32,694 nucleotides of DNA from a virus (IMGVR_UViG_3300002756_000060:1-32694), one strand, 5' to 3'; shown: positions 6,841 to 28,755, counted from the first letter of the stretch. The notes: a model not told the origin generated them from the letters alone. Made by a program: numbers and translations.

Positions 6841-7136
6841 AAGACTCAGGCTTGTCGATTTCTTCCACTCTGATTTGAGCTGACATGACAGCCGCGTTAT
6901 ATACTTCGCCCGTTCCTAACGACTCATTCTGCTTTTCAGAACGTGGCGGGAAGTAGGTCCAGATCGGATCGAAACGCCAACTTGGAAACCCGAGTTTCCT
7001 TGAACCAAACCTTCGCAGCGCATTCCTTGAAGGTCCCCTTGGGCCGAGAGTGCACCCTCCCATTGGTTCCTCCCTGGCCCCGAACGTATACGGGGGGGCG
7101 CAGCGCGGCAGTTTTCCAGCGTCTGGCCTTTTCACC

Positions 7137-7325
7137 GGGGAATCCAGGCGGAATCCACCTGCCGAGTCATCCTGGAAAAAGCGACTCATTATCAAGGACT
7201 TGCCGAATCACGACCTGGCCAGGGTGGATTCTTTTACCGAATCCAGGGAATCCAGTTCGCGGAAGCCACAGCGCCGGAAGCCAGCCAGCGGAAGCCACCT
7301 GATGGGAAGCCATTGAATCCAGGTG
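7137..7325. repeat. Array of at least 10 short GGAA(T/G)CCA motifs in both orientations
   Basis: ggggaatccagg, cggaatccacc, gggtggattc (inverted), ccgaatccaggg, gggaatccag, cggaagccaca, ccggaagccagcc, gcggaagccacc, gggaagccattg, tgaatccaggtg. Confidence 0.6.
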
Positions 7326-7335
7326 CATTTTTCGT

Positions 7336-7419
7336 TTGACAAAGCTGCCCCCCTTGACTCATACCTTGATAATCGAAGAATGGCGCCCGGAGGAAACTCT
7401 CGCGGGCGTTTTTGTTTTT
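7336..7419 (+). promoter_or_regulatory. Promoter-like TTGACA/TTGACT/GATAAT elements followed by a GC stem (CGCCCG 7384-7389 / CGGGCG 7403-7408) and T-run tttttgttttt; candidate leader attenuator or terminator
   Basis: TTGACA at 7336-7341, TTGACT at 7354-7359, GATAAT at 7368-7373; hairpin plus U-tract; the same arrangement is conserved at 22422-22510. Confidence 0.4.
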
Positions 7420-7505
7420 CCAACATCGCGGACCCTGATGCTGTCGCCGACCGGTGCGGTCGCGCTCTCGCGTCTGTCCGCGTCTCACCACAGCAGAGAG
7501 ACCCC

Positions 7506-8768
7506 ATGGACCTTGTCTTCGCGCCAAGCGAGATCGAGGCGTGGCCGATCGAGCGGCTGCGCCCCTATGCCCGCAATGCCAAGATGCATGGTGAGGACCA
7601 GGTGGCCAAGATCGCCGCCAGCATGGCGAAGTTCGGCTGGACGGTGCCCTGCATGGTGTCCGACGATGGCGAGTTGATTGCCGGGCATGGCCGGGTACTG
7701 GCGGCCGCAATGCTGGGGCTGAAGGATGTGCCGGTGATCCGGCTGGCGCATCTGGACGAGGCCGAGCGGCGGGCCTACCGGATCGCCGACAACAAGCTCA
7801 CGGAACTCGGCGATTGGGACGAGACCGTGCTGCGCGACGAGATCGCGGGGCTGCTGGCCGAGGATTTCGACCTGTCGCTGCTGGGGATCGGCGACGATGA
7901 TCTGGATGCGCTGCTGCGCGACCCCGAAGCGCAGGACGGCGACGGCCCGATCGAGGGCGAGGACGACGTTCCGGAACCGCCGGTCACGCCGGTCTCGGTG
8001 GCGGGCGATCTCTGGCAGCTTGGCGCGCATCGACTGATCTGCGGCGACAGCACTGCGGCGGACGTGGTCGGGCGCCTGCTGGGCGATGTGCGCCCCCTGC
8101 TGATGGTGACCGATCCGCCCTATGGCGTGGAATACGATCCGTCCTGGCGAAACCAGGCGGGCGCCGCCAAGACCAAACGCACCGGCAAGGTGCTCAACGA
8201 TGACCGCGCCGACTGGCGCGAGGCCTGGGCGCTGTTTCCGGGCGACGTCGCCTATGTCTGGCACGGTGCGCTGCATGCCGCCGAGGTGGCGGAGTCGCTG
8301 ATCGTCTCGGGTTTTGCCATCCGCTCGCAGATCATCTGGGCCAAGGACCGGCTGGTGCTCAGCCGAGGCGATTACCACTGGCAGCATGAACCGTGCTGGT
8401 ATGCGGTGCGTACCAAGGGCAAGGGCCACTGGGCCGGCGATCGCAAGCAGACGACGCTGTGGCAAATCGCAAACAAGGATCAGGATGTGGCCACCGTCCA
8501 CGGCACGCAAAAGCCCGTCGAGTGCATGCGCCGCCCGATCCTCAACAACTCGAACGCCGGTCAGGCGGTCTATGAGCCCTTCATGGGATCGGGCACGACG
8601 CTGATCGCGGCGGAAACCACCGAACGGATCTGCTACGGGGTCGAGCTCAACCCGGCCTATGTCGATGTCGCCGTCAAGCGCTGGCAGTCCTTCACCGGCG
8701 CGGAAGCGGTGCTGGCGGACACCGGCGAGAGCTTTGCCAGCCTCAAGGCCAAACGGATGGCTGCATGA
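7506..8768 (+). CDS. ParB-like nuclease domain fused to DNA methyltransferase (beta-class, motif IV DPPY; N6-adenine type predicted)
   Basis: N-terminal ParB-type motif (RPYARNAKMHG...IAGHGRVLAA...YRIADNKLTELG); motif IV LMVTDPPYG; motif I YEPFMGSGTTLIAAE. The ORF is open from 7323 but the start is called at ATG 7506 by alignment with the paralog at 22593. Confidence 0.85.
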   Translation: MDLVFAPSEIEAWPIERLRPYARNAKMHGEDQVAKIAASMAKFGWTVPCMVSDDGELIAGHGRVLAAAMLGLKDVPVIRLAHLDEAERRAYRIADNKLTELGDWDETVLRDEIAGLLAEDFDLSLLGIGDDDLDALLRDPEAQDGDGPIEGEDDVPEPPVTPVSVAGDLWQLGAHRLICGDSTAADVVGRLLGDVRPLLMVTDPPYGVEYDPSWRNQAGAAKTKRTGKVLNDDRADWREAWALFPGDVAYVWHGALHAAEVAESLIVSGFAIRSQIIWAKDRLVLSRGDYHWQHEPCWYAVRTKGKGHWAGDRKQTTLWQIANKDQDVATVHGTQKPVECMRRPILNNSNAGQAVYEPFMGSGTTLIAAETTERICYGVELNPAYVDVAVKRWQSFTGAEAVLADTGESFASLKAKRMAA

Positions 8769-10132
8769 GCATGCATTTGCGTCCCAGCCAGATCGAGTTC
8801 TGGCCGCTGGACCGCCTCAAGCCCTATGCCCGCAACGCCAAGACCCATGACGCCGATCAGGTGGCGCGGATCGCCGCCAGCATGGCCGAGTTCGGCTGGA
8901 CCGTGCCCTGCCTGGTTGGCGACGATGGCGACCTGATCGCGGGCCATGGTCGCGTTCTTGCCGCCGCGCAGCTGGGCCTGGCGGAGGCACCCGTCATCGT
9001 GCTGGGCCATCTGACCGAGGCGCAGCGCCGGGCCTATCGCATCGCCGACAACAAGCTGACCGAGTTGGGCGGCTGGGACGAGGGCCTGCTGCTGGAGGAA
9101 CTGCGGGGGCTTATGGCCGCCGAGTTCGACCTCGGGCTGATCGGCATCCCCGAGGACGAGCTGGATGCCCTGCTGCGCGACGCCGATGACGACAGTGTGC
9201 CCATCGACGACGACACAGCCGATACCATCCCGGAGCCCCCGGCCGAGCCGATCACCCGGCCCGGCGATATCTGGGCGCTGGGCGCGCACCGGCTGATCTG
9301 CGGCGATGCCACCGACGCGGATGTCGTGGCCAGGCTTATGGAGGGCGCGCAGTCGTCGCTGATGTTCACCTCGCCGCCCTACGCCCAGCAGCGCGACTAT
9401 GGCGCGGCCAGGGAGACGGTGGGCGACTGGGACGCGCTGATGCAGGGCGTCTTCGCGGCGGCACCGGTCACCGACGCGGCCCAACTGCTGGTCAATCTCG
9501 GCCTCGTGCATCGCGACGGTGAGTGGCTCCCCTATTGGGAGCGCTGGGTCGAGTGGATGCGCAGCTCTGGCTGGCGGCGCTTCGGCTGGTATGTCTGGGA
9601 TCAGGGGCCGGGCCTGCCCGGCGACTGGAATGGCCGCCTCGCGCCCTCGCACGAGTTCATCTTCCACTTCAACCGCCAACCCCGGAAGCCCAACAAGACG
9701 GTGCCGTCCAAGCACGCGGGCGAAACCTTGGGCGGCGGTGGGCTGCGCGGGGTCAACGGCACCGTCCACGCCAAGCGAGGGGCCGGCAACGCGATCCAGA
9801 GCCATCGCATCCCGGACTCGGTGTTTCGTATCATGCGCCACAAGGGCGGGCTGGGTGCTGCCGGATCGCATCCGGCCGTGTTCCCGGTGGCGCTGGTCGA
9901 GGCCGTGCTGACCGCGTTCAGCGATCCAGGCGACCTGATCTACGAGCCGTTCTGTGGCTCCGGCACGCAGATCGTTGCCGCCGAACGCGCTGGGCGGCGC
10001 TGCTTCGCGATGGAGCTGGATCCGGTCTATTGCGACGTCGCCATGCGGCGATGGGAACTGGCGACGGGGCGGACGGCGCAGTTGGAAAATCGCAACGAGA
10101 CCACCATTGGCAAGGAGACAAAACAGCAATGA
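8765..10132 (+). CDS. ParB-like nuclease domain fused to DNA methyltransferase (beta-class, motif IV SPPY; N4-cytosine type predicted)
   Basis: ParB-type N-terminus (KPYARNAKTHDADQVARIAASMAEFGW...); motif IV LMFTSPPYAQQRDYG; motif I YEPFCGSGTQIVAAE; ATGA overlap with the upstream gene at 8765-8768. Confidence 0.85.
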   Translation: MSMHLRPSQIEFWPLDRLKPYARNAKTHDADQVARIAASMAEFGWTVPCLVGDDGDLIAGHGRVLAAAQLGLAEAPVIVLGHLTEAQRRAYRIADNKLTELGGWDEGLLLEELRGLMAAEFDLGLIGIPEDELDALLRDADDDSVPIDDDTADTIPEPPAEPITRPGDIWALGAHRLICGDATDADVVARLMEGAQSSLMFTSPPYAQQRDYGAARETVGDWDALMQGVFAAAPVTDAAQLLVNLGLVHRDGEWLPYWERWVEWMRSSGWRRFGWYVWDQGPGLPGDWNGRLAPSHEFIFHFNRQPRKPNKTVPSKHAGETLGGGGLRGVNGTVHAKRGAGNAIQSHRIPDSVFRIMRHKGGLGAAGSHPAVFPVALVEAVLTAFSDPGDLIYEPFCGSGTQIVAAERAGRRCFAMELDPVYCDVAMRRWELATGRTAQLENRNETTIGKETKQQ

Positions 10133-10638
10133 TCATCGACACCCCGATCTGGCGAAACGCCGACCTCATTCGGATCATTCCGATCACACGCGCGGACCTG
10201 AACCAGGCCATATCCCGAAACGACTTTCAGCCTGAAAACACACCCAAGCCCGGAAAGGCGCGCTGGTACAGCTGGAGAGACGTGGTGTCGGTTGCTGCCG
10301 CACAGGACTTGCGCAAACTTGGCTTTGGTCCGTCCATCGCATTTAGGCTGGTGCAAAACCACCTGTCACCGTTTCTGCGGGGTAGCATAGACGCCCCGGA
10401 CGATTGCGCAGGAGTGCTTTGGCTTATCCGTCCAAGTGACGACCATCTCAACATTGAGACCCCGTGTGAGTTCCTGCGCCACACCGAATACGAGGCACTC
10501 CTTGTCACGCCAGACGAGAGCGCCTGCATCATCGTGAATATCGGTCGCATTGCAGCACGCGTTCGCGATGACCTGCAGGCGACCGAGACCGCCAAGGTCA
10601 TCCGTGAGGAATTTCAGATCACGGGACCGGTGATGTGA
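10129..10638 (+). CDS. hypothetical protein (169 aa)
   Basis: ATG 10129 overlaps the upstream stop (ATGA); AAGGAGA Shine-Dalgarno at 10112-10118; conserved paralog at 25216-25725. Confidence 0.6.
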   Translation: MIIDTPIWRNADLIRIIPITRADLNQAISRNDFQPENTPKPGKARWYSWRDVVSVAAAQDLRKLGFGPSIAFRLVQNHLSPFLRGSIDAPDDCAGVLWLIRPSDDHLNIETPCEFLRHTEYEALLVTPDESACIIVNIGRIAARVRDDLQATETAKVIREEFQITGPVM

Positions 10639-10844
10639 CCCAATCGCGCGGCATGTCGCTGATCGAGGCCATCACCAATGTCGCGGTGGGCTATGCGCTG
10701 GCCGTCGCCGCGCAGATCGCGGTTTTCCCGTGGTTCGGCCTGCATGCGAGCATTGGCGAGAACCTCACCATCGGCGCCCTGTTCACCGGCATCTCGCTGC
10801 TGCGCAGCTACGCGCTGCGCAGGCTGTTCGAACGCTGGTGGTAA
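10635..10844 (+). CDS. small hydrophobic (probable membrane) protein, 69 aa
   Basis: GTG start overlapping the upstream stop (GTGA); two hydrophobic stretches (VAVGYALAVAAQIAVFPWFG, LTIGALFTGISLL); conserved paralog at 25722-25937. Confidence 0.5.
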   Translation: MTQSRGMSLIEAITNVAVGYALAVAAQIAVFPWFGLHASIGENLTIGALFTGISLLRSYALRRLFERWW

Positions 10845-10853
10845 CGCGCGGGA

Positions 10854-11309
10854 TCAAGCCGTGTCGAGCTTGTACACGGTGCCACGCCCGTCAACTTTCT
10901 CGGCAGTGACGGGCAGGCCCAGCTTCTTCTTGAGCCCGCCCGAGATCAGGCCACGTGCACTATGCGGCTGCCACGAGGTCGCCTCGACAATCTCGGCGAT
11001 GGATGCGCCCTCGGGCCGCTGAATGAGCGCGATGATCTGCGCCTGCTTCGTGCCCGAGCGGATGGCGACGGGTTTTGCGGTGTCCGCAGCTTCGGGCGTC
11101 GGTGCGACATCGGGCTTGGGCTTTCCCTTCCGCGCGCTGGCGACAGCGCTGACCACCACCGGCTCGATCCCGATGGCCTCCAGCCCGGCCTCGGTGGCGA
11201 TCAGCGTGGTGCCATGACCGTCACCGGTCTCGCGCCAGAGCGGCTCGCCGCGGCGGCTGTCGGCATCGACCTCCTCGATCCAGCCATTGGTGATCATGCG
11301 AGTGAACAC
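10854..11309 (-). CDS. DUF3489-like protein, probably a 5'-truncated copy
   Basis: Aligns with the C-terminal ~150 aa of the 193-aa paralog at 26938-27519 (WRETGDGHGTTLIATEAGL...SIAEIVEATSW...GRGTVYKL); start abuts a divergent gene at 11312 with no promoter space. Confidence 0.5.
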   Translation of the reverse strand: MFTRMITNGWIEEVDADSRRGEPLWRETGDGHGTTLIATEAGLEAIGIEPVVVSAVASARKGKPKPDVAPTPEAADTAKPVAIRSGTKQAQIIALIQRPEGASIAEIVEATSWQPHSARGLISGGLKKKLGLPVTAEKVDGRGTVYKLDTA

Positions 11310-11311
11310 CG

Positions 11312-12058
11312 ATGAGCCTGCATCCCGGTACGGATCGCTACAACCCGGCTGGGAACAGCGACTTCACCCGCAAGGCGGAGGCGCTGGCGCTGGGCATCCC
11401 CAACTGGTCGACACCGAAGGCGACAGACGGCGCGAAGGGTGGGCCGGGCCAGAGCTATGGCTCGGGCGGGACGCCACCCCTGCCCGCGCAGGCGGCACAA
11501 TGGCAGACGCCGGTGGCCGACGACCAGATGGATCGGCTGCGTGGCAAGATCAACAGCCGGGGCGAGCCGAAGCTATCGGCACAGGCGCTGCAATGGCCGA
11601 CCCCGGCGGCGCAGAACTGGAAGGGGAGCAGCCCGGCCAGCGTGACGCGGGCGGATGGCAAGAGCCGGATGGATATCCTGCATTACCGGGCGGAGCAGGG
11701 CTTCACCCACCCGGCCCCGGCGATCATGCGGCATGGGCGGCAGTGCTCGCGACACGCCCCGATCTCACGCCCGCTGTGGGCTTCGATGATTGCCTCGCAT
11801 GGGCGCGGCGCATGTCGGCGGCTCCTGAAGGGCCGCTCACGGCGGCGGCTGAACCCGCTCTTCGTCGGATGGTTGATGGGCTGGCCCATCGGTCACGCGC
11901 TCTGCGCCTGCTCGGCAACGGAGTTCATCCTCTGGCAGCAGCGCATGCGTGGCGCGCTCTCGCAGCTGCCCATGGCCTCGGGCCCGTGGATCTGGCGGCC
12001 ATCGGACGAGGCCCAGCGCCCCGCGCAGATGACGCTGTTTGAGGTGTGGTCTGAATGA
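11312..12058 (+). CDS. hypothetical protein with three W-x-TP motifs
   Basis: 248-aa ORF; NWSTPKATDGAKGG, QWQTPVADDQ, QWPTPAAQNWKGSS; stop overlaps the next ATG (ATGA at 12055-12058). Confidence 0.5.
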   Translation: MSLHPGTDRYNPAGNSDFTRKAEALALGIPNWSTPKATDGAKGGPGQSYGSGGTPPLPAQAAQWQTPVADDQMDRLRGKINSRGEPKLSAQALQWPTPAAQNWKGSSPASVTRADGKSRMDILHYRAEQGFTHPAPAIMRHGRQCSRHAPISRPLWASMIASHGRGACRRLLKGRSRRRLNPLFVGWLMGWPIGHALCACSATEFILWQQRMRGALSQLPMASGPWIWRPSDEAQRPAQMTLFEVWSE

Positions 12059-12717
12059 CGATACAAGGAAAGATCGGGCGGCCAGGCGGCCAAAAAACCA
12101 AACGCGCGCTGGGCGTGCAGGCGGCGCTGGAATGGGCCTTTGGCGTGGAAAAGGCACAGCTGGAACTGCCCCTACCGAAGGGCGTGGCCGAGGAAGGCTT
12201 CGGCTTTGGGCTCGAATACGTGCTGCTGCAACGCGCCATACTTGGCTGCAAGATCGACGGCGGCCAACACAAGTTGGGTGGCTATGTGCACGTGGACGCC
12301 GAGGTGATCGCCGCCACCGTCGCGGGCATGCCCGACACCTTGGGTGGTAAGCGCATGGCGATCCGGGTCGCGGAACTGGCACGCGCCGGGCTGACCCCGG
12401 ACTGGATGCCCAGGGCCGTGCCGCGCTGCGTGCCCGTCGATATCAAGCGCAACCGGCATGGTGATCGCGCGGTCAGCGTCGTGGTCGGCACCGCCCGCGC
12501 GCTGATCAGCGGCAAGTGGCGCATCGTCGAGGTCCGCGCCTGCCCCGTCACCTTCACCCCAACCCCACACCAGATCGACGCCGCCCGCCAAGCCTATGAC
12601 GACTGGTGGCAGGCACTGGACTGGGTACGGGATGGGCTTATCGCGGGCGACATGCTGCGGGAGATTGATGTGACAGGGGCGATGCCGAGCGTGCGGCCGT
12701 GGGCTGCAAAGCCTTGA
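12055..12717 (+). CDS. hypothetical protein (220 aa)
   Basis: Translationally coupled to the upstream gene; no recognisable motif. Confidence 0.5.
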   Translation: MTIQGKIGRPGGQKTKRALGVQAALEWAFGVEKAQLELPLPKGVAEEGFGFGLEYVLLQRAILGCKIDGGQHKLGGYVHVDAEVIAATVAGMPDTLGGKRMAIRVAELARAGLTPDWMPRAVPRCVPVDIKRNRHGDRAVSVVVGTARALISGKWRIVEVRACPVTFTPTPHQIDAARQAYDDWWQALDWVRDGLIAGDMLREIDVTGAMPSVRPWAAKP

Positions 12718-12778
12718 TCTTGCGCTCGGCACAAAGAATTCACTCGAAGCGCTGGCATTCAGCAAGTAAGCCTAAGGT

Positions 12779-15652
12779 ATGTTCACCGCTTACCATGGCA
12801 AATATACCGCATATGATCTTACGAAGCTGGCGCCGCCCGGCTCGGACGATCAGTTGTCAATGTCGTTGTTCGATGCATCGGTTGATCTCAATCCTCATCA
12901 GATTGAGGCCGCGATGTTCGCGCTTCAATCGCCGCTGGCTGAAGGCGCGATACTTGCGGATGAGGTCGGCCTCGGCAAAACCATCGAGGCAGGCATTGTC
13001 CTTTGCCAGAAATGGGCTGAGCGAAAACGGAAACTAATCATCATCTGCCCAGCGGCCATTCGACAGCAGTGGGCTGCAGAACTGACGAACAAGTTCAATC
13101 TTCCCGCAGTCGTCATTGACGCTCGGACCTATCGACAGATGAAGATGGAAGGCATTCCATTCCCTTTGTCACAGAAGCGGATCGTCGTGCTATCCTATCA
13201 TTATGCTGCAAAGCTTCAGGATGAGCTTCGGCAAGTCGATTGGGATCTGGTTGTTATCGACGAAGCGCACAAGCTTCGTAACTCGTACCGACCCAGCAAT
13301 CGCATCGGGCAAGCTCTTCAACGAGCAGTCGAAGGCCGCAAAAAGCTCCTGCTGACGGCTACTCCCCTCCAAAACAGCTTGATGGAGATATTCGGGCTTA
13401 CGAACTTCATTGATCCAAACATTTTCGGCGATGCCAACAGCTTCCGGTCGAAGTATGTGAATGCCGGTGGCGATCTGCCCGAGCTTCGCGCAAGGCTCGC
13501 GGATTTCTGCAAGCGCACGCTTCGGAAGCAGGTTCTCGAGTATGTCAAATATACTCAGCGCCGTGCCATCACGCAGCCATTCTCGCCGGCGGAGAACGAG
13601 CAGGCGCTGTATGACGGCATTACGCGCTTCCTACAACGAGAGGACACCTATGCAATACCCTCTCAACAGCGCCATCTAACCGTTCTTATCCTGCGGAAGC
13701 TTCTCGCTTCGTCATCACAGGCCATCGCAGGGACGCTTGAGACCCTACGCGCCCGCTTGGTAGCCCTGCAGAAAGGGGAACCGGTAAAGGATGATCTGGC
13801 GGAGGTGATTTCATTCGAGAACGAGCTCGAAGAAGAAATTCTCGACGAATGGGATGATGACGATGCGCAAGACCCCACAGGGGCCGAGCAAATCGACTTC
13901 GCCAAGCTTCGCCTGGAAATCGACGATATTTCAGGTCTGATCCAGCTTGCACATTCGATCCAGATCGATACTAAGTCCAAAGCGCTGCTACAGGCTCTCG
14001 AGATAGGCTTTTCGGAGCAGGAGCGGATGGGCGCACAGAGAAAAGCCCTGATCTTCACAGAGTCGCGCCGCACCCAAGACTATCTCCGCGATTTCCTCGC
14101 GCGCTACGGTTACGCCAATCAAATTGTGACCTTCAGTGGCACTAATTCCGACCGCAAGGCACAGGAAATTTACGAGCGCTGGCTTACCGATCCGAAGAGC
14201 GCCGAGCAGATTACAGGATCGCGCGCCATCGATGTTCGTGCTGCACTGATAGAAGAATTCCGCGACAATGCCTCGATCATGATCGCAACCGAGGCCGCCG
14301 CCGAGGGTGTCAACCTGCAATTCTGCTCGCAGGTCATCAACTACGACCTTCCGTGGAACCCGCAGAGGATCGAACAGCGCATCGGACGCTGCCATCGCTA
14401 TGGGCAGACGCATGATGTGATCGTCGTGAACTTCCTGAACGAACGCAACGATGCAGATAAACGGGTTCACGCGCTTCTAACCGAGAAGTTCAATCTGTTC
14501 GATGGTGTATTTGGGGCTTCAGACGAGGTCTTGGGAACGATTGAGTCCGGCGTCGACTTCGAAAAGCGCATTCTGGCGATTTACCAGGACTGCCGCACTC
14601 CGGAGGCCATCGCCGCAGCTTTTGATGAACTTCAGACCCAGCTCGAGGAACAAATTCGGAGCCGAATGGAGGATACAAGGCGGGCCCTGCTGGAGAACTT
14701 CGACGAGGATGTCCACGCCCGCCTGAAGCTGCGCCTCGCTGACGCCCGCGAACAGTTGGACCGTGTCGGGCGCCGGTTTTGGGATCTGACCACTGCTATC
14801 CTCGCCGACAAGGCCAAATTCGATGAACCAAATCTGGCCTTCGACCTTCTGGCCCCGCCGACCCGCGACCTGCGACCGGGCCGCTATCACCTGATCTCGC
14901 GGAACTCGGCCGCAGACCCGGCCAAGAACGAACACGGCTATTTCCTCTACCGGCTGTCGCACCCTCTTGGCGAGCATGTCATTGAATCGGCCAAGGCCGC
15001 TGACACGCCAGTGGCCGAATTGCGGTTCGATGTGACCAATCACCCCACACGCGTGGCCATCGTCGAGGCGCTGAAAGGGCGGCGCGGCTGGCTGACGCTG
15101 CGCAAACTTGCGGTGACGACCTTCGAGACCGAGGAATACCTGCTATTCTCGGGCATCGACGACAATGGTCGCTCCATCGACCACGAAGCCTGCGCCAAGC
15201 TGTTCTCGGTCGGTGCTGGCGTTCACCCCATCGACATGCCCGCCCCTGCCATCGCCGACCTCCTTCAGGCTGAGGCCGAGCAGCATGCCAAAGCCACCTT
15301 GAACCGGTCGCTGGATGCCAACAACAAGCACTTTGCCTCGGCCCGTGAAAGGCTGGAGCGCTGGGCTGAGGACAAGGTCTACGCGGCAGAGAAGGCGCTG
15401 AAGGACACCAAGGAACAGATCAAGGGGGTGCGTCGCGAGGCGCGGGCAGCTACCACACTCGAAGAAGAAGCCGCCATCCAAGCCAAACTGCAGGAACTGG
15501 AACGTCGCCAGCGCAAGCAGCGGCAGGAAATCTTCAACCAGGAAGACGAAGTGGCCGACAAGCGGGACGAGTTGATCGCCAACCTTCAAAAGCGGCTCAG
15601 CCGTGGCCACTCGGTTGAATCGCTGTTTACGGTCCGCTGGGCCGTCGTGTAG
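12779..15652 (+). CDS. SNF2-family (SF2) helicase/ATPase
   Basis: Motif I LADEVGLGKTIEAG; motif II LVVIDEAHKLRN; motif III LLLTATPLQNSLMEIFGL; C-terminal helicase motifs ALIFTESRRT, IMIATEAAAEGVNLQ, DLPWNPQRIEQRIGRCHRYGQ; AT-richer codon usage than neighbours. Confidence 0.9.
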   Translation: MFTAYHGKYTAYDLTKLAPPGSDDQLSMSLFDASVDLNPHQIEAAMFALQSPLAEGAILADEVGLGKTIEAGIVLCQKWAERKRKLIIICPAAIRQQWAAELTNKFNLPAVVIDARTYRQMKMEGIPFPLSQKRIVVLSYHYAAKLQDELRQVDWDLVVIDEAHKLRNSYRPSNRIGQALQRAVEGRKKLLLTATPLQNSLMEIFGLTNFIDPNIFGDANSFRSKYVNAGGDLPELRARLADFCKRTLRKQVLEYVKYTQRRAITQPFSPAENEQALYDGITRFLQREDTYAIPSQQRHLTVLILRKLLASSSQAIAGTLETLRARLVALQKGEPVKDDLAEVISFENELEEEILDEWDDDDAQDPTGAEQIDFAKLRLEIDDISGLIQLAHSIQIDTKSKALLQALEIGFSEQERMGAQRKALIFTESRRTQDYLRDFLARYGYANQIVTFSGTNSDRKAQEIYERWLTDPKSAEQITGSRAIDVRAALIEEFRDNASIMIATEAAAEGVNLQFCSQVINYDLPWNPQRIEQRIGRCHRYGQTHDVIVVNFLNERNDADKRVHALLTEKFNLFDGVFGASDEVLGTIESGVDFEKRILAIYQDCRTPEAIAAAFDELQTQLEEQIRSRMEDTRRALLENFDEDVHARLKLRLADAREQLDRVGRRFWDLTTAILADKAKFDEPNLAFDLLAPPTRDLRPGRYHLISRNSAADPAKNEHGYFLYRLSHPLGEHVIESAKAADTPVAELRFDVTNHPTRVAIVEALKGRRGWLTLRKLAVTTFETEEYLLFSGIDDNGRSIDHEACAKLFSVGAGVHPIDMPAPAIADLLQAEAEQHAKATLNRSLDANNKHFASARERLERWAEDKVYAAEKALKDTKEQIKGVRREARAATTLEEEAAIQAKLQELERRQRKQRQEIFNQEDEVADKRDELIANLQKRLSRGHSVESLFTVRWAVV

Positions 15653-15685
15653 ACCAGCCGAGTAACATCAAGGAAAACAAGAACA

Positions 15686-18805: not shown

Positions 18806-21800
18806 TGGCGCGTGCGGCGAAGAAAAAGCGCACCTTCCATCACGAGTTGGTGCTGAACCGCTGGATGCTGAGCCATTTTTACGGTGACGGCCTGATGACG
18901 CTCAAATCGCGGTTGGGCGATGACCGGTTTGAGGGTATCGACGACGATGGCCAGACCAAGTTCTTTCATGAGCTGACGCGCAACCTGTTCAACATGGACC
19001 GCGTCACCGAGGCCGAGCTGCGCCGCTATGACCTGAACATCGTCGCATATTGGCAGAAGATCACCCATCGCCGCAACGCCGCCACGGGCGAATTGCTGAC
19101 GATGAAATATTTTCAGTATCTGTCGCTGCTGTTCACCGAGATCTACCTCGACTGGTATTTCAACCGGCGACAGGACTTGCTGGACGGGCTGAATGCCCAA
19201 ATGGCCGCGTATCGGAAAGAGGACGGGGCCGAACCGTTTCGCGATTATAGCGCCGACGACCTCAACAAGCTCGCCTTCTGGAACGCGACAGGCAGCGGCA
19301 AGACCCTGCTGCTGCATGTGAACATCCTGCAGTACCTGCATTACTTCCAGGCGGGCAACGGCAACCTATTTCCCGACCGGATCATCCTGCTGACCCCAAA
19401 CGAGGGACTGTCACGCCAGCATCTGGAGGAATTCCGCGAGTCCGGCATCAACGCCCATGTCTTCGACAAGAACCAGACAGGTTCGCTGTTCAAGGGCTGG
19501 GTGGATGTGATCGAAGTCACGAAGCTGGCCGACGAGATGGGCGACAAGACCGTCGCCACCGGCGCGTTCGAGGGCAACAACCTGGTGCTGGTCGACGAAG
19601 GCCACCGCGGCACCGGCAGTGCGGGCGGGGTCTGGATGGCGAGGCGCGCGGCGCTGGTGAAGGGCGGCTTTGCTTTTGAATACAGCGCGACCTTCAGCCA
19701 ATCAGTCGCCAAGGGCGCCACGGTTGCAAAGGCCGAGGAAGACATCCTGAAGGCCAAGGCGAAGCGCCTGTTCGACAAGACTTTGAAACAGCTGGACGAC
19801 ACGGAACGCGCACAACTGCAGCTGACCAACGAAGATCGCGCCCGCGCCCGCATCGACGGCATTCGCGAGGCCTACGCCAAGGCGGTGCTGATCGACTACA
19901 GCTACAAGTATTTCTACGCCGACGGTTACGGGAAGGAATCCCTGATCCTGAACCTGGACGACAAGGGCTATGACAACCATGGCGATCTGTATTTCACAGC
20001 GTGCTTGCTCAGCTTCTACCAGCAGCTCTGGCTCTGGGACACGCACCGCGACAAGATCAGGGACTTCAATATCGAGAAGCCGTTGTGGGTCTTCGTGGGC
20101 AACACTGTGGCCGGAGAGGACAGCGATATCCTCGAAGTCATCAAGTTCCTCGCCTGGTTTCTGAACCATCCCAGCGAAGCCACGACATGGATCGCAGACC
20201 TCGTTGCCGACAAGGCGCGGCTGCTGGACCCGAAGGGTAACGACGTATTCGCGGGGCGCTTCTCCCCCTTGATGCAGCGTGATGCCGCGACGATCTATGA
20301 CGATATCCTGAAGCGGCTGTTTAACGCCGATGCGAGGCAGCGGCTGAAGTTGGTGAACCTGAAGAACAGCAAGGGTGAGCTGGCCCTGCGGGTCGGATCG
20401 TTCGATCCCTTTGGCCTGATCAACATCGGCGACGATTCCGGCTTCTTCAAGAACGCCGAGGACAGCAGCGACTTCGATACCGAAGCGGACGATTTCGGGA
20501 CCGGGCTGTTTGGCACGATCAACCAGAAAGATAGCAAGCTGAATGTCCTGATCGGGTCGCGGAAATTCACCGAAGGCTGGTCAAGCTGGCGGGTGTCGAC
20601 CATGGGTCTACTCAACATGGGGCAAGGCGAAGGCTCACAGATCATTCAGCTTTTCGGTCGCGGCGTCCGCCTGAAAGGACGCGGCATGTCGCTGAAACGG
20701 TCACTCCCCGCCGAGCGGCCGAAGGGCACGCACATGGAACGCCTTGAAACGCTGAACATCTTCGGCGTCCGGGCGAACTACATGGCCACCTTCAAGGACT
20801 ACCTGAAGGAGGAAGGCATCACGCCGAGCGACGAAATCATTCAGCTCGACTTCCCGACCAGGACGAACCTGCCGTCCGGGACTAGGCTCAAGACGCTCAA
20901 GCTGAAAGATGGCTATAAGGATAATCAGATCAAGGGCTTCAAGCGCGTCCACTATCCGACGTTATACGAGGTCCCGGCCGAGTTCGCGGGCAAGATCAAG
21001 CCTCCACACGTCCTGCTCGACCTTTATCCGCGAGTCGAAGCGATCACGACCACGGCGAACGCAACGGCGGGCGCACCGGACAAGCGAAATCGTGGCAAAC
21101 TGAGCAAGGCGGCAATCGCCTGCTTTGATTGGGATGCGGTATTCACCGCCGTTCAGGAATACAAGCTCCTGAAAAGCTGGAGCAACCTGAAGGTCGACCG
21201 AGAGCGCCTATACCAGTTCTGTCTTGGCGACAACAGCTGGTACACCCTTTTGATCCCCCAAGCGGAACTGGAAGTGTCGGACTTTTCAGATGTGCTGCGT
21301 CAGCAGGACATCATGCTTCAGCTGCTTACCGACTATACCGACCGTTTCTATCAAGGGCTGAAGGCGGCTTATGAGGGCAAATTCTACGATGTCGCGCCGG
21401 TTACGGAGGACTCCGGCTCGATCATCAAACTGTACCAGTTTGAGATCGAAAACACCGATGTCGGTCTTGAGTACAAGGCAAAGCTTGAGGTCCTTTCCGC
21501 CCTCGTCGCGTCTGGAAAAATCGGCGAGGCCAGCAATTGGAACGCACCCCATATGGTGGCGATCAGCTTCGGACAGCACCTGTATTATCCCCTGCTCTCT
21601 CCGATCAAAGATGCGGTCGTCCCACTAAAGATGCGACCACTGGCAATTGGAGAACCAAGCGAGGTGCAGTTCGTTGAGGACGTCATGGCCTACTACGACT
21701 CGCCTTCAGGGAAAGAGAGGCTGAAAGGCTTCAGCCTTTACCTGCTGCGCAATGCCGACAATCGCGCCAAGGGGCTCGGTTTCGCTCTGGCAGGCAACTT

Positions 21801-22122
21801 CTATCCTGACTTCCTGCTCTGGCTGGTGGACGACAAAACTGGCAAGCAGTGGCTATCATTCATCGATCCTAAGGGCATTCGAAACCTGAACATTTCGGAC
21901 CCGAAGTTTGGCTTGTATAGGGAAATCAAGCAGATCGAGAACCAGCTGGGTGACGGCATGATCAGCCTAAACGCCTTCATCCTGTCCGTGACGACCTTCA
22001 GCGACCTGCTAAATGTCACAGGCTCTACCACGAAATCGGAGCTCGAGGACCGAAATGTCCTATTCATGGGCGACGGGGGGCCGACATATCTTGATAAGCT
22101 GCTGGCCAGAGCCCTCACCTGA
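18805..22122 (+). CDS. Res-like ATPase/helicase with candidate C-terminal PD-(D/E)xK nuclease
   Basis: Walker A FWNATGSGKTLLLHV; Walker B-type LVLVDEGHRG; C-terminal YPDFLLWL...FIDPKG; start overlaps the Mod-like stop (TGATG), so co-operonic; 1105 aa. Confidence 0.75.
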   Translation: MARAAKKKRTFHHELVLNRWMLSHFYGDGLMTLKSRLGDDRFEGIDDDGQTKFFHELTRNLFNMDRVTEAELRRYDLNIVAYWQKITHRRNAATGELLTMKYFQYLSLLFTEIYLDWYFNRRQDLLDGLNAQMAAYRKEDGAEPFRDYSADDLNKLAFWNATGSGKTLLLHVNILQYLHYFQAGNGNLFPDRIILLTPNEGLSRQHLEEFRESGINAHVFDKNQTGSLFKGWVDVIEVTKLADEMGDKTVATGAFEGNNLVLVDEGHRGTGSAGGVWMARRAALVKGGFAFEYSATFSQSVAKGATVAKAEEDILKAKAKRLFDKTLKQLDDTERAQLQLTNEDRARARIDGIREAYAKAVLIDYSYKYFYADGYGKESLILNLDDKGYDNHGDLYFTACLLSFYQQLWLWDTHRDKIRDFNIEKPLWVFVGNTVAGEDSDILEVIKFLAWFLNHPSEATTWIADLVADKARLLDPKGNDVFAGRFSPLMQRDAATIYDDILKRLFNADARQRLKLVNLKNSKGELALRVGSFDPFGLINIGDDSGFFKNAEDSSDFDTEADDFGTGLFGTINQKDSKLNVLIGSRKFTEGWSSWRVSTMGLLNMGQGEGSQIIQLFGRGVRLKGRGMSLKRSLPAERPKGTHMERLETLNIFGVRANYMATFKDYLKEEGITPSDEIIQLDFPTRTNLPSGTRLKTLKLKDGYKDNQIKGFKRVHYPTLYEVPAEFAGKIKPPHVLLDLYPRVEAITTTANATAGAPDKRNRGKLSKAAIACFDWDAVFTAVQEYKLLKSWSNLKVDRERLYQFCLGDNSWYTLLIPQAELEVSDFSDVLRQQDIMLQLLTDYTDRFYQGLKAAYEGKFYDVAPVTEDSGSIIKLYQFEIENTDVGLEYKAKLEVLSALVASGKIGEASNWNAPHMVAISFGQHLYYPLLSPIKDAVVPLKMRPLAIGEPSEVQFVEDVMAYYDSPSGKERLKGFSLYLLRNADNRAKGLGFALAGNFYPDFLLWLVDDKTGKQWLSFIDPKGIRNLNISDPKFGLYREIKQIENQLGDGMISLNAFILSVTTFSDLLNVTGSTTKSELEDRNVLFMGDGGPTYLDKLLARALT

Positions 22123-22124
22123 GC

Positions 22125-22150
22125 CGGGGCAAGTTGAGCTCCCCCCCGGC
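22125..22150 (+). terminator. Weak GC hairpin immediately after the Res-like gene stop
   Basis: GCCGGGG (22125-22131) pairs with CCCCGGC about 13 nt downstream; no clear U-tract. Confidence 0.2.
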
Positions 22151-22225
22151 ATGGTTCCTCCCGGGCGCGATCCGTATACGGGGGGGCTGAGCGCGGCATT
22201 TCGCTAGCGACTGGCTTTTTCACCG

Positions 22226-22427
22226 GGGAATCCACTTGGAAGCCACCCCGGCGGCCCTGCCGGAAATTGTGACTCAATTTCAGAACCTTACCCGACAGCA
22301 TCGGTGGCCAGGGTGGATTCCTTTTGGAAGCCAGGGAATCCACTTGGTGGGTTCTTTTGGCCAGAAAAGCCACCCTCAGGCCAGATCGGCAGAACACCTT
22401 GATTCCAAGCCACAAAATGGATTGACA
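22226..22427. repeat. Array of GGAA(T/G)CCA motifs in both orientations (paralog of 7137-7325)
   Basis: gggaatccacttggaagccacc occurs twice; ggtggccagggtggattcc (inverted); gattccaagccac. Confidence 0.6.
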
Positions 22428-22510
22428 TTTCTAGCCCCCTTGACGTACCCCTTGATTGTCGAAGAGTTGCGCCCGGAGGAAACCCCTCGCGGGCGCTTTT
22501 GCTTTCCCCC
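22422..22510 (+). promoter_or_regulatory. Promoter-like TTGACA/TTGACG/TTGATT elements followed by a GC stem (GCGCCCG 22469-22475 / CGGGCGC 22490-22496) and T-rich tract
   Basis: Same arrangement as 7336-7419; the conserved leader CATCGCGGACCCTGA follows in both copies. Confidence 0.4.
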
Positions 22511-22592
22511 ATCGCGGACCCTGACACAGCAACCGGCGTTTGCCGGGGCTTGCATTGGTCTGTCCGCCCTGCCCCGGATCCGAACCCCACCC

Positions 22593-23855
22593 ATGGACCT
22601 TGTCTTTGCGCCGAGCCAGATCGAGAGCTGGCCGATCGACCGGCTGCGCCCCTATGCCCGCAATGCCAAGATCCACGGCACGGACCAAGTCGCCAAGATC
22701 GCGGCAAGCATGGCCAAGTTCGGCTGGACCGTGCCTTGCTTGGTGGCTGACGATGGCGATCTGATTGCGGGCCACGGTCGGGTGCTGGCCGCCATCATGC
22801 TGGGGCTGACCGAGGTGCCGGTGATCCGGCTCGGCCACCTGGATGAAGCGGAGCGCCGGGCGTACCGGATCGCGGACAACAAATTGACCGAGTTGGGCGA
22901 ATGGGACGAGGCAATGCTGCGCGACGAGATCGCGGGGCTGCTGGCCGAGGATTTCGACCTTACGCTGCTGGGCATCAGCGAGGATGATCTCGATGCGCTG
23001 TTGCGGGATCCCGATGCGCTGGGCGGCGATGGCCCCGTCGAGGGCGAGGACGACGTTCCGGAGTTACCGGTCACCCCGGTCTCGGTGGCGGGTGACCTTT
23101 GGCAGCTTGGATCGCACCGGCTGATCTGCGGCGACAGCACCTCCGCCGATGTCGTCGGGCGGCTGCTCGGCGACGTGAAGCCGTTGCTGATGGTGACGGA
23201 CCCGCCTTACGGCGTGGAGTATGACCCAAGCTGGCGCAACCAGGCGGGCGCGGCCAAAACCAAACGAACCGGCAAGGTGCTGAACGACGACCGGGCCGAC
23301 TGGCGCGAGGCATGGGCGCTGTTCCCCGGCGATGTCGCCTATGTCTGGCACGGCGCGCTGCATGCAGCGACGGTTGCTGAAAGCCTCTTGGTTGCAGGTT
23401 TTGCCATTCGCTCGCAGATTATCTGGGCCAAGGACCGGCTGGTCCTCAGCCGCGGCGATTACCACTGGCAGCATGAGCCCTGCTGGTATGCGGTGCGCGT
23501 CAAGGGCAAGGGGCACTGGGCGGGCGACCGCAAGCAGACCACATTGTGGCAGATCGCCAACCGCGATCAAGATGCCGACACAGTGCACGGCACGCAAAAG
23601 CCGGTCGAATGCATGCGCCGTCCGATCCTGAACAATTCCAGCCCCGGGCAGGCGGTGTTTGAACCCTTTATGGGGTCTGGCACCACGCTGATCGCGGCTG
23701 AAACCACGGGACGCGTCTGCTTTGGGATCGAGTTGAACCCGGCCTACGTTGATGTGGCCATCGAGCGCTGGCAGCAATTCACCGGCGCCAATGCCGTGCT
23801 GGCGGAAACGGGCGAGACCTTCGCCGAGTTGAAGGCCAAAAGGCTGGCCGCATGA
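22593..23855 (+). CDS. ParB-like nuclease domain fused to DNA methyltransferase (DPPY type), paralog of 7506-8768
   Basis: MDLVFAPSQIESWPIDRLRPYARNAK...; LMVTDPPYG; FEPFMGSGTTLIAAE; 8 differences from the first copy in the first 62 residues. Confidence 0.85.
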   Translation: MDLVFAPSQIESWPIDRLRPYARNAKIHGTDQVAKIAASMAKFGWTVPCLVADDGDLIAGHGRVLAAIMLGLTEVPVIRLGHLDEAERRAYRIADNKLTELGEWDEAMLRDEIAGLLAEDFDLTLLGISEDDLDALLRDPDALGGDGPVEGEDDVPELPVTPVSVAGDLWQLGSHRLICGDSTSADVVGRLLGDVKPLLMVTDPPYGVEYDPSWRNQAGAAKTKRTGKVLNDDRADWREAWALFPGDVAYVWHGALHAATVAESLLVAGFAIRSQIIWAKDRLVLSRGDYHWQHEPCWYAVRVKGKGHWAGDRKQTTLWQIANRDQDADTVHGTQKPVECMRRPILNNSSPGQAVFEPFMGSGTTLIAAETTGRVCFGIELNPAYVDVAIERWQQFTGANAVLAETGETFAELKAKRLAA

Positions 23856-25219
23856 ACGCGCCCCTCCTGCCGGGCCGGATCGAACATTGGCCGCTGGCCC
23901 GGCTGAAGCCCTATGCCCGCAACGCCAAGACCCATGACGCCGATCAGGTTGTGAAGATCGCTGCCAGCATGGCCGAGTTTGGCTGGACCGTCCCCTGCCT
24001 CGTCGCCGCCGATGGTGAGTTGATCGCAGGCCATGGCCGCATCCTGGCGGCGGCCCAGCTGGGGCTGTCCGAGGCCCCGGTCATCGTGCTGGACCATCTG
24101 ACCGAGGCGCAACGCCGGGCCTATCGCATCGCCGACAACAAGCTCACCGAGCTGGGCGGCTGGGACGAGGCCCTGCTCCTCGAGGAGCTGCGCGGGCTGT
24201 TGGCCGAGGATTTCGACCTCGGGCTGATCGGGATCCCCGAGGATGAGCTGGACGCGCTGCTGCACGCGGGCGACGAAGAGCGCCCATCGATTTCTGACGA
24301 TGCGGCTGATGCCATCCCCGCCCCGCCTGCCGAACCCATCACTAAGGCGGGCGACATCTGGGCGCTGGGCAAGCACCGGCTATGCTGCGGCGACGCGACC
24401 GATCCGGCCGCTGTCGCCAGGTTGATGCAGGGTGCAGAAGCCGCGCTGATGTTCACCTCGCCACCCTATGCCCAGCAGCGCGACTATGGCGCGGCCAGGG
24501 AAAAACTCGGCGATTGGGATGCGCTGATGCAGGGCGTGTTCACTGCAGCGCCGGTCACCACCGACGCACAGCTGCTGGTCAACCTCGGCCTCGTGCACCG
24601 GGACAGCGAATGGCAACCCTATTGGGAAGGATGGGTCGAATGGATGCGCAAATCTGGCTGGCGACGCTTTGGCTGGTATGTGTGGGATCAGGGCCCGGGC
24701 TTGCCGGGCGACTGGAACGGCCGCCTGGCCCCGTCGCACGAGTTCATTTTCCACTTCAACCGCGCGCCCCGCAAACCGCACAAGACGGTCCAGTCAAAGC
24801 ACGCGGGCGAAACTTTGGGCGGCGGCGGGCTGCGCGGGGCCGACGGCACCGTGCATGCCAAAACCGGCACAGGCAACGCGATCCAGAGCCACCGCATCCC
24901 GGACTCTGTCTTCCGCATCATGCGCCACAAGGGCGGGCTGGGTGCGGCCGGATCGCATCCGGCGGTGTTCCCCGTGGCGCTGGTCGAGGCCGTGCTGACC
25001 GCATTCTCGGATCCGGGCGACCTGATCTACGAGCCGTTCTGCGGCTCCGGCACCCAGATCGTCGCCGCCGAACGCGCTGAGCGGCGCTGCTTCGCGATGG
25101 AACTGGATCCCGTCTATTGCGACGTCGCCGTGCGGCGATGGGAACTGGCGACGGGGCGAAAGGCACAGTTGGAAAATCGCAACGAAACCACCATTGGCAA
25201 GGAGACAAAACAGCAATGA
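23852..25219 (+). CDS. ParB-like nuclease domain fused to DNA methyltransferase (SPPY type), paralog of 8765-10132
   Basis: KPYARNAKTHDADQVVKIAASMAEFGW; LMFTSPPYAQQRDYG; YEPFCGSGTQIVAAE; ATGA overlap with the upstream gene. Confidence 0.85.
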   Translation: MNAPLLPGRIEHWPLARLKPYARNAKTHDADQVVKIAASMAEFGWTVPCLVAADGELIAGHGRILAAAQLGLSEAPVIVLDHLTEAQRRAYRIADNKLTELGGWDEALLLEELRGLLAEDFDLGLIGIPEDELDALLHAGDEERPSISDDAADAIPAPPAEPITKAGDIWALGKHRLCCGDATDPAAVARLMQGAEAALMFTSPPYAQQRDYGAAREKLGDWDALMQGVFTAAPVTTDAQLLVNLGLVHRDSEWQPYWEGWVEWMRKSGWRRFGWYVWDQGPGLPGDWNGRLAPSHEFIFHFNRAPRKPHKTVQSKHAGETLGGGGLRGADGTVHAKTGTGNAIQSHRIPDSVFRIMRHKGGLGAAGSHPAVFPVALVEAVLTAFSDPGDLIYEPFCGSGTQIVAAERAERRCFAMELDPVYCDVAVRRWELATGRKAQLENRNETTIGKETKQQ

Positions 25220-25725
25220 TCATCAACACCCCAATCTGGCGAAACGCTGACCTCATTCGGATCATTCCGATCACGCGCGCGGACCTGAACCAGGCCATAT
25301 CCCGCAACGACTTTCAGCCTGAAAACACACCCAAGCCCGGAAAGGCGCGCTGGTACAGCTGGAGAGACGTAGTGTCGGTTGCTGCCGCACAGGACTTGCG
25401 CAAACTCGGCTTTGGTCCGTCGATCGCATTTGGGCTGGTGCAAAACCACCTGTCACCGTTTCTGCGGGCTAGCATAGACGCCCCGGACGATTGCGCAGGA
25501 GTGCTTTGGCTTATCCGTCCAAGTGACGACCATCTCAACATTGAGACCCCGTGCGAGTTCCTGCGGCACACCGAATACGAGGAACTCCTTGTTACGCCAG
25601 ACGAGAGCGCTTGCATCATCGTGAATATCGGTCGCATTGCAGCCCGCGTTAGCAATGACCTGCAGGCGACCGAGACTGCCAAGATCATCCGTGAGGAATT
25701 TCAGATCACAGGACCGGTGATGTGA
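25216..25725 (+). CDS. hypothetical protein (169 aa), paralog of 10129-10638
   Basis: Near-identical sequence (MIINTPIWRNADLIRIIPITRADLNQAISRNDF...). Confidence 0.6.
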   Translation: MIINTPIWRNADLIRIIPITRADLNQAISRNDFQPENTPKPGKARWYSWRDVVSVAAAQDLRKLGFGPSIAFGLVQNHLSPFLRASIDAPDDCAGVLWLIRPSDDHLNIETPCEFLRHTEYEELLVTPDESACIIVNIGRIAARVSNDLQATETAKIIREEFQITGPVM

Positions 25726-25937
25726 CCCAATCGCGCGGCATGTCGCTGATCGAAGCCGTCACCAACGTGGCGGTGGGCTATGTGCTCGCTGTCGCCACGC
25801 AGATCTTGGTGTTTCCATGGTTCGGCCTGCACCCGAGCCTTGGCGAGAACCTAGCGCTGGGCGGGGTCTTCATCGGCATATCGCTCCTGCGCAGCTACGC
25901 GCTGCGCAGGCTGTTCGAGCGCTGGACGCACTTGTGA
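25722..25937 (+). CDS. small hydrophobic (probable membrane) protein, paralog of 10635-10844
   Basis: MTQSRGMSLIEAVTNVAVGYVLAVATQILVFPWFGLHPSLGENLALGGVFIGISLL. Confidence 0.5.
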   Translation: MTQSRGMSLIEAVTNVAVGYVLAVATQILVFPWFGLHPSLGENLALGGVFIGISLLRSYALRRLFERWTHL

Positions 25938-25989
25938 TGCCAGTTCCTGATAAAAAATGCAGCTGAGAGAAGCGCCGAATTTTTGGCGC

Positions 25990-26010
25990 ATTCCTGCGAT
26001 ACCAGGAATG
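25990..26010. promoter_or_regulatory. Perfect 8-bp inverted repeat CATTCCTG-cgata-CAGGAATG just upstream of the NYN gene (candidate operator)
   Basis: Palindrome read directly at 25990-25997 and 26003-26010; it lies 16-25 nt upstream of the candidate starts. Confidence 0.35.
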
Positions 26011-26025
26011 GAAATCCAGTAGACG

Positions 26026-27519: not shown

Positions 27520-27556
27520 CTTGGCCTCCTGTCATGGAATGGGGTGTCGGGGATGA

Positions 27557-28732: not shown

Positions 28733-28755
28733 GTTGGTCTCCGTTTGGCGACGTT

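Follow-up and report, generated by a model that had tools for sequence, protein, structure and literature searches.

The viral sequence IMGVR_UViG_3300002756_000060:1-32694, analysed over its full length of 32,694 nucleotides (nt; hereafter the window), carries twice, in the same orientation, a module of ParB-fused DNA methyltransferase (MTase) genes with its regulatory leader. The two copies, A and B, stand on either side of a helicase/methylase cassette, and they are almost certainly orthologous modules of two distinct prophages, here designated E1 and E2, and not the products of a duplication. What was taken for a diverged repeat bracketing a defence cassette is two phage modules of a known type brought together by one unsupported junction. 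The window is composed of the cargo and module of E1 up to base 11305, bluntly joined to E2 from base 11306 on, and it is because of this single non-homologous junction that the module appears twice and seems to bracket the cargo of E2.

The evidence for two parents is the exact match of each half of the window to a different set of public contigs. Positions 1-11305 are 100.000% identical to the E1 contigs L081 / L082 (0 mismatches, 0 gaps), and positions 11306-32694 are 100.000% identical to the E2 contigs L083, L106, L093 and L094 and to IMG/VR UViG_3300002490_000102. The parental contigs were found by looking up five proteins of the window (HsdR, the 169-aa protein of the module, the SNF2 helicase, C1 and the large terminase subunit, TerL) in an index of public assemblies. 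The E1 contigs are L081 / L097 (JGI 3300027640, 59.6 kb), L082 / L098 (ENA ERZ27249388), L099 (JGI 3300002490), L100 and L101, and the E2 contigs are L083 (JGI 3300002490, 72 kb), L106 / L093 (ENA ERZ925084, 72.8 kb) and L094; both prophages are present in one sample, JGI 3300002490. Five E1 contigs, independent of one another (L097-L101, from four samples), match the window up to exactly 11305 and then diverge from it for about 1-9 kb. Beyond this point the E1 contigs carry a full-length DUF3489 gene, and the long contig L081 / L097 reaches the terminase and head genes of E1 itself. Upstream of 11306, the E2 contigs carry an integrase, early genes, an HTH_36 gene and the N-terminal catalytic half of a cytosine-5 methyltransferase (C5-MTase; PF00145, E = 8e-30). 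The original prediction had offered, as one of its options, two related phage-like elements, and this is borne out, each prophage being intact and separate in public metagenome contigs. The features around the breakpoint are as follows.

11305-11306, no strand: E1/E2 junction, reading ...GCGAGTGA on the E1 side and ACACCGATG... on the E2 side; in neither parent
10854-11305, minus strand: DUF3489 gene of E1, 5'-truncated; the C-terminal ~150 codons are left, N-terminus and promoter being lost at the junction
11306-12717, plus strand: left arm of E2 in the window, C1 then C2
11312-12058, plus strand: C1, 248 aa, phrog_27243, target-recognition-like distal part of the C5-MTase locus
12055-12717, plus strand: C2, 220 aa, phrog_9306

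At the breakpoint, E1 goes on with CGGCCATC and E2 is preceded by CTGGCCC, with zero shared bases and no microhomology. The junction cuts two genes, removing the N-terminus of the E1 DUF3489 protein (188 aa, full length, in the parental contigs) and the catalytic half of the E2 C5-MTase locus. The C1 start codon comes 6 nt after the junction, and the open reading frames (ORFs) of C1 and C2 are intact.

The repeat itself is real. Self-BLAST of the window aligns 7064-10838 with 22152-25925 over 3788 nt at 83.7% identity, with 27 gap positions (E = 0), and a separate repeat search of the window recovered the same blocks. Weak similarity is detectable from about 7035 / 22123, i.e. 1-30 nt past the stop codon of the type III Res gene (22120-22122), and the starts first proposed for the repeat (7045 / 22125) are correct within 20-30 nt. 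The ends then proposed (10850 / 25937) have to be extended, as homology picks up again at 10850-11297 versus 26934-27396 with 77% identity in the self-comparison. The break in homology is an insertion of about 1 kb in copy B with an NYN-domain gene, and the resumed stretch codes for the minus-strand DUF3489 gene, not for the plus-strand ORFs first read there. Along the repeat, identity is 60-74% in the regulatory/non-coding leader, 74-87% in the MTase genes and 92-97% at 9816-10615; the longest exact runs between the copies are 84 and 65 nt. The contents listed in the original prediction (repeat array, promoter-like block, hairpin, two ParB-MTase genes and two small genes) are all included, and its count of 8 differing residues among the first 62 of the first MTases is exact. 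The pairwise comparison of the two segments that it had suggested as a check thus shows a repeat that spans the non-coding leader as well as genes. The genes of the two modules are as follows.

7506-8768, plus strand: ParB-fused N6/N4 DNA methyltransferase 1, copy A (420 aa; PF01555, E = 8e-19; phrog_498; ParB-like phrog_620, E = 3e-48)
8765-10132, plus strand: ParB-fused N6/N4 DNA methyltransferase 2, copy A (455 aa)
10129-10638, plus strand: 169-aa protein, copy A, function not assigned
10635-10844, plus strand: DUF7220 protein, copy A (PF23858, E = 2e-33)
22593-25937, plus strand: copy B module (gene calls on L093)
22593-23855, plus strand: ParB-MTase 1, copy B
23852-25219, plus strand: ParB-MTase 2, copy B
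25216-25725, plus strand: 169-aa protein, copy B
25722-25937, plus strand: DUF7220 protein, copy B

Between copies A and B, amino-acid identity is 88.6% for ParB-MTase 1, 95.9% for the 169-aa protein and 80.3% for the DUF7220 protein, and ParB-MTases 1 and 2 are paralogues with 43% identity. The N6/N4 MTase domain (PF01555) was found above the gathering score in all four ParB-MTase proteins (E = 5e-20 to 8e-19), and the N-terminal ParB-like domain fused to it is matched by phrog_620 (E = 3e-48, 7e-50) and phrog_15396 over residues ~9-210. The ParB family PF02195 was not reported by Pfam for these proteins at E <= 0.01, and is rated only faint in the precomputed matches.

The junction was then sought in other sequences. 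A hybrid 42-mer across it had no match in IMG/VR or in JGI metagenome contigs, and the parental flanks were recovered; in IMG/VR, the E1 flank is absent and no reciprocal junction (E2 left side joined to E1 right side) was found. All 11 indexed contigs encoding C1 have E2-type left neighbours, and every E1 contig that reaches the site has the parental configuration. The junction is missing from all of the more than 25 contigs of this habitat, and both parental configurations were recovered repeatedly. None of the three possible hybrid-specific products of the truncated DUF3489 ORF is on record. The GenBank phage collection gave only distant matches to the MTase domain (66-74%) and, across the junction, nothing close. 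Relatives in genomes were collected by searching the second methylase against one genome per species; at least 568 were confirmed, and the best 80, almost all from Rhodobacterales / Paracoccaceae, were fetched. Among these best 80 related loci, none joins a DUF3489 gene to C1, and they show instead a canonical order with a single module. As mapped with the proteins of the window, this order is integrase, small early genes, HTH_36, C5-MTase/C1, C2 and a variable slot, followed by the ParB-methylase module, DUF3489 and other minus-strand genes, small and large terminase subunits, portal, protease, decoration, capsid and tail genes.

Contigs of both phages tend to break in this region. The short MEGAHIT contigs of E1 (L102, L103 and L105) end at 11179-11184, inside DUF3489, the E2 contig L094 starts at 27371, and breaks in E2 contigs occur in C2 too (11949-12574). 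In the assembly graphs of these samples, the region is therefore tangled and prone to breaks; the contig ends at 11179-11184 / 27371 have no convincing link to position 11305. Two of the contigs, L104 and L105, represent further strain variants of E1.

From these results a chimeric origin of the junction, whether in assembly, in scaffolding or in the handling of the sequence, is judged the likeliest, with a probability of about 0.55. It is present in no other contig, the window is 100% identical to the parents on both sides of it, microhomology is absent and two genes are destroyed. In addition, the genome is packaged by a lambda gpA-type terminase and would grow by about 15.7 kb in the hybrid, which would probably not be packageable. 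The suspicion of a misassembly raised in the original prediction is thus strengthened, in the form of a single blunt E1/E2 join at 11305/11306 and not of a collapsed or duplicated repeat. Several observations weigh against an artefact, however. No k-mer is shared by E1 and E2 at the junction, unlike in the usual assembler error, and the exact runs of 84 and 65 nt lie about 0.9-1.1 kb away; therefore, an artefact would have to stem from scaffolding, from the closing of a gap, from a chimeric long read or amplification product, or from the handling of the sequence. A chimera of the de Bruijn-graph type was rejected because of the missing k-mer, the exact runs shared by E1 and E2 near either breakpoint being 45 nt or less. 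Some metagenome samples contain both E1 and E2, so that a real recombinant is biologically possible, and the C1 and C2 ORFs are left whole by the junction, an outcome that selection could favour in a real mosaic. Furthermore, Roseovarius sp. MBR-78 has two members of the family (L028 and L036) about 40-43 kb apart in the same orientation, a pair that could represent a tandem precursor state. Finally, the scan of relatives covered the best 80 of at least 568, and a genome with the junction could exist beyond these.

The missing k-mer, the co-occurrence of E1 and E2, the intact C1 and C2 and the Roseovarius pair also speak for a real junction, in which illegitimate recombination of co-resident or co-infecting E1 and E2, or a deletion between tandem prophages, fused the left arm of E1 to E2; we consider this a serious possibility, though not the favoured one. 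Illegitimate recombination is the accepted origin of mosaic junctions in phage genomes (the Hendrix model), and the exact runs of 84 and 65 nt would permit RecA-dependent exchange between the copies. The result would resemble mosaic phages or tandem polylysogeny, being a novel joint of related temperate phages at a non-homologous point near a gene start. Unlike usual phage mosaics, it destroys two genes and duplicates a 4-kb, essential-looking module, and it lacks the support of an independent assembly. The absence of the junction from the same-habitat contigs, the lack of a match to the junction 42-mer and the doubtful packageability of 15.7 kb of additional DNA also count against it. Moreover, the zero divergence from both parents means that any real event must have been extremely recent, and the region upstream of the integrase in the E2 parent is not the structural region of E1, so E1 and E2 are not in tandem there. 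Two complete prophages in tandem were rejected as an explanation of the window, since E1 ends in DUF3489, E2 begins in the C5-MTase locus, and no integrase, att site or structural gene lies between the copies; the wording "in tandem" of the original prediction holds only loosely, for two elements of which the first ends inside a gene. A real hybrid would stack two defence cargos and two ParB-MTase modules, and its repeats could later delete about 15 kb. The repeat-mediated loss originally proposed is mechanistically reasonable if the arrangement is real, since it could proceed through the identical tracts of 65-84 nt, over an interval of about 15 kb. The fuller scenario, in which a very recent illegitimate recombination of co-resident prophages made a hybrid with two cargos and two modules whose identical tracts allow later loss or exchange of cargo, is offered only tentatively, and the arrangement should not be read as an amplification or deletion device without proof at the level of reads.

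An internal duplication, the other origin put forward for the repeat, is refuted by the parental contigs and by the comparison with relatives. The joint of the truncated DUF3489 gene to the truncated C5-MTase/C1 locus is formally the one that a tandem duplication makes, and a segmental duplication within one prophage could have been followed by divergence and by replacement of the cargo in one copy. However, the halves of the window are 100% identical to two different, intact and independently assembled prophages, and the cargos are unrelated. Copy B is 92% identical to L047 / L052, from Paracoccus and Pseudogemmobacter genomes, versus 83.7% to copy A, and copy A is 85% identical to L036 / L037; the copies are not each other's closest relatives. 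An internal divergence of 16% together with none from the external parents is not credible, and we regard such a duplication as extremely improbable. Since the halves belong to two phages, the cargos differ and copy B is nearer to modules from other genera, the 16% divergence is the distance between phage lineages. Just as improbable is a helicase/methylase cassette that moves, by a site-specific or transpositional mechanism, as a transposon- or integron-like unit flanked by the repeats. The right edge of every cargo is sharply set at the start of the conserved block, as such a unit would have it, but the major reading frames scanned in 7045-25937 include none with a transposase, integrase or recombinase domain, the left "repeat" comes from another phage, the E2 parent has a single flanking module, and the junction lies inside genes and not at the end of a repeat. 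The supposed repeat bracketing a cassette is not a designed architecture.

E1 and E2 are temperate lambda-like prophages of a large family in Rhodobacterales / Paracoccaceae, and more than 60 relatives have the ParB-MTase module upstream of the terminase genes. The account of Paracoccus prophages in Decewicz et al. (2019, PMC6536676) includes, in the part that deals with this locus, ParB-fused m6A/m4C methylases upstream of terminase genes, with cytosine-5 methylases in the locus. The corresponding section of Iyer, Zhang and Aravind (2015, PMC4738411) describes a phage "ParB-Tls" (ParB-terminase large subunit) locus as a predicted phage DNA modification system linked to packaging. The module and its position are of this known kind, with E1 and E2 as uncharacterised members: a ParB-MTase fusion lies a few kb upstream of the terminase in a temperate phage, with a C5-MTase nearby and Paracoccaceae / Rhodobacterales hosts. 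In contrast to the locus as set out in those portions of the two papers (PMC6536676, PMC4738411), the present one has tandem paralogous ParB-MTases, the conserved 169-aa protein and DUF7220, with a conserved GGAAKCCA octamer array, promoter-like block and hairpin ahead of them. The presence of two modules in the window is due to the E1/E2 junction and not to the ParB-Tls locus itself. The ParB-fused methylases are probably orphan enzymes whose modification of phage DNA would shield it from restriction by the host or by competitors; the ParB domain may couple this methylation to packaging, as the literature proposes. In copy B, the small (TerS) and large terminase genes begin 3.6-4.1 kb downstream of the module; copy A lies upstream of the terminase in its parental contig L097, not within the window.

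The genes to the left of each module form its cargo.

1-6840, plus strand: E1 cargo (Pfam and PADLOC matches; gene calls on L081; 100% identity to L081 / L082)
start of the window, plus strand: 129-aa gene of E1, its 5' end beyond the window
401-832, plus strand: 143-aa gene of E1
829-3960, plus strand: type I restriction subunit HsdR, E1
4236-5219, plus strand: HARE-HTH protein, E1
5341-6840, plus strand: CHAT-domain protein, E1
12779-22122, plus strand: E2 cargo (Pfam and PADLOC matches; 100% identity to L083-L086)
12779-15652, plus strand: DrmD-like SNF2 helicase, E2 (DrmD, E = 2e-203, PADLOC)
15686-18805, plus strand: type III Mod methyltransferase, E2 (MTase_III PDLC03646, positions 1-1054 of 1057, E = 0)
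18805-22122, plus strand: type III Res, E2 (REase_III PDLC03654, positions 19-1124 of 1154, E = 0), abutting Mod at 18805

Since the E1 genes left of copy A are an equivalent cargo, the window holds two units of cargo plus module and not a cassette framed by repeats. The genes hsdM and hsdS lie directly upstream of hsdR in the E1 parental contig, and an HsdR with 91% identity occupies the same slot in many relatives. Right after HsdR (4221-6840) come the genes for the HARE-HTH and CHAT-domain (caspase-like) proteins, neither of which was matched by a PADLOC model; the two may be an uncharacterised defence pair. The E2 cargo has the adjacent Mod and Res (helicase-nuclease) genes that define type III restriction-modification (R-M), both matching the PADLOC models over their full length, and shares with DISARM only the DrmD-type SNF2 helicase. 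DrmA, DrmB (DUF1998) and DrmC had no match in any reading frame of 12717-22122. DISARM was therefore rejected for this cassette, in which the DrmD-like helicase stands alone with type III Mod and Res as neighbours, and the cassette is, on the matches of its genes, a type III-like R-M system with an SNF2 partner.

Across the family, the slot between C2 and the ParB-MTase block measures 1.3-10.5 kb, and its content varies among relatives. The variable slot loci compared were L022, L024, L027, L028, L053, L055, L072, L076, L077 and L080, together with both elements of the window. Relatives carry in it a UG19 defence reverse transcriptase (DRT), genes of type I, II, IIG, III or IV R-M systems, or a small toxin-antitoxin-like (HigBA-like) pair, and eight of the ten sampled cargos gave PADLOC matches to DRT or to type I/II/IIG/III/IV R-M. 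The slot thus has the conserved flanks and the variable, defence-rich content across relatives that mark a prophage defence hotspot: it is family-wide and sharply bounded, and holds interchangeable anti-phage systems between the C5-MTase/C2 genes and the ParB-methylase module. It often has a lower GC content, and several of its proteins have no PADLOC match, e.g. a 1591-aa ORF in L040.

Defence hotspots encoded by prophages and satellites, such as P2-like phages and P4-like satellites, were reportedly described by Rousset et al. in 2022. The present slot resembles them in its conserved flanks (C2 to the left, the regulatory block of the ParB-MTase genes to the right) around differing, largely defensive content, and differs from them in phage family and host clade and in lying between two sets of phage methyltransferase genes. 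A limited search of the literature found no description of such a slot in Rhodobacterales prophages, by which its novelty is neither shown nor excluded. The slot and its boundary element, analogous to hotspots known in other phages, are useful for annotation and for finding defence genes. If the junction is biological, the window would show the shuffling of defence cargo caught in the act, in a previously undescribed hotspot of Rhodobacterales prophages.

The regulatory region upstream of the first ParB-MTase gene forms the right flank of the slot, and its parts are as follows.

7045-7505, plus strand: copy A regulatory region, with seven GGAAKCCA repeats at 7139-7312, promoter-like block, hairpin and T-run
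within it, plus strand: copy A promoter-like block, with TTGACA at 7336, TTGACT at 7354 and AAGAAT at 7376-7381
7382-7410, plus strand: copy A GC hairpin, -18.2 kcal/mol by folding, followed by the T-run
22125-22592, plus strand: copy B regulatory region, with five GGAAKCCA repeats at 22227-22342, promoter-like block, hairpin and T-run
within it, plus strand: copy B promoter-like block, with TTGACA at 22422 and TTGACG at 22440
22469-22496, plus strand: copy B hairpin, -22.5 kcal/mol by folding, followed by the T-run

All 12 matches of the octamer GGAAKCCA in the window fall in the two leaders, versus 2.55 expected by chance in the 32.7 kb. Arrays of GGAA(T/G)CCA across about 60 loci consist of 4-9 octamers, two of them 11 nt apart, followed by a cluster with spacings of 9-15 nt. 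All three elements, the array, the promoter-like block and the hairpin, are conserved ahead of the first ParB-MTase gene in about 60 related loci, and are therefore features of the family and not products of a duplication. The octamer array is probably a protein-binding site, for which the ParB domains of the methylases or the adjacent DUF3489 winged-helix protein would be candidate binders. Downstream of it, a near-invariant block of about 85 nt (7336-7420, 22422-22505) reads TTGACA-N12-TTGAC-N16-AAGAAT-GCGCCCGGAGG..CCTCGCGGGCG-T-run, the promoter-like part having the general form TTGACA...TTGAC(T/G)...AAGA(A/G)T in both copies. Since a strong hairpin/terminator falls at the predicted transcription start, expression may be controlled by antitermination, or a very short RNA may be made; the hairpin with its T-run may either end the transcripts of the cargo or act as a terminator that would have to be overcome for methylase expression. 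Together, the array, block and hairpin beside the slot may regulate the methylase genes. No Rfam family was found in the whole window at gathering thresholds, indicating that the leader hairpin is not a known RNA. A scanner for promoters and terminators flagged a promoter-like site in copy A only, and it missed the hairpin because of the bulge of the latter. Folding indicates a stable hairpin, and its sequence is almost invariant in the approximately 60 relatives. The left edge of the conserved block (~7050-7090, 22137-22185) carries an inverted repeat of the form C-run...GTATACGGGGGGG, with an 8-bp GC stem and a loop of about 30 nt in E2, and at this edge (~7050 / 22137) every cargo comes to an abrupt end on its right, both in the window and in the relatives.

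To the right of the copy B module, the window contains the following genes of E2.

26026-26712, plus strand: NYN-domain gene (PF01936, E = 3e-25), in E2 only, which explains the ~1 kb indel between the copies
26938-29414, minus strand: block with a full-length DUF3489 gene (26938-27519, 193 aa), followed by small genes, DUF6900 among them
29554-32104, plus strand: terminase genes, with a candidate small subunit (29554-30123) and a lambda gpA-type large subunit (30071-32104; PF05876, PF20454); portal gene next

The interval 25937-26934, from DUF7220 to DUF3489, is a second, smaller variable spot, which holds the NYN gene in E2, nothing in E1 and 0.02-4.5 kb in relatives. In the C5-MTase locus (window 11287-12058; L083 ~8020-9266; L028 5844-7106), the catalytic half lies in one frame and C1 in another. 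The catalytic half has the motifs LCAGGGG, PCQPFS, ENV and QRLR and matches PF00145 at positions 4-164; in each of the six relatives checked this first frame remains open, and it ends in a motif-X-like LLGNGVHP. The C1 ORF has a WPTP-repeat, is target-recognition-domain-like, has a GC content at third codon positions (GC3) of 0.85 and overlaps the frame of the catalytic half for about 740 nt. The C5-MTase could be a split, frameshifted or overprinted enzyme. The integrase, 198-aa protein and WYL-protein genes form a block whose orientation, with the rest of the element as reference, is opposite in E1 and E2 (L081 1-1976 versus L083 2445-5550). Among the head genes, the E1 parent carries as morons CcdA/CcdB and PIN/MazE-type toxin-antitoxin pairs (L097 15300-18281), and the E2 parent a REase-ARP and a nitroreductase-like gene (L093 16821-19818).

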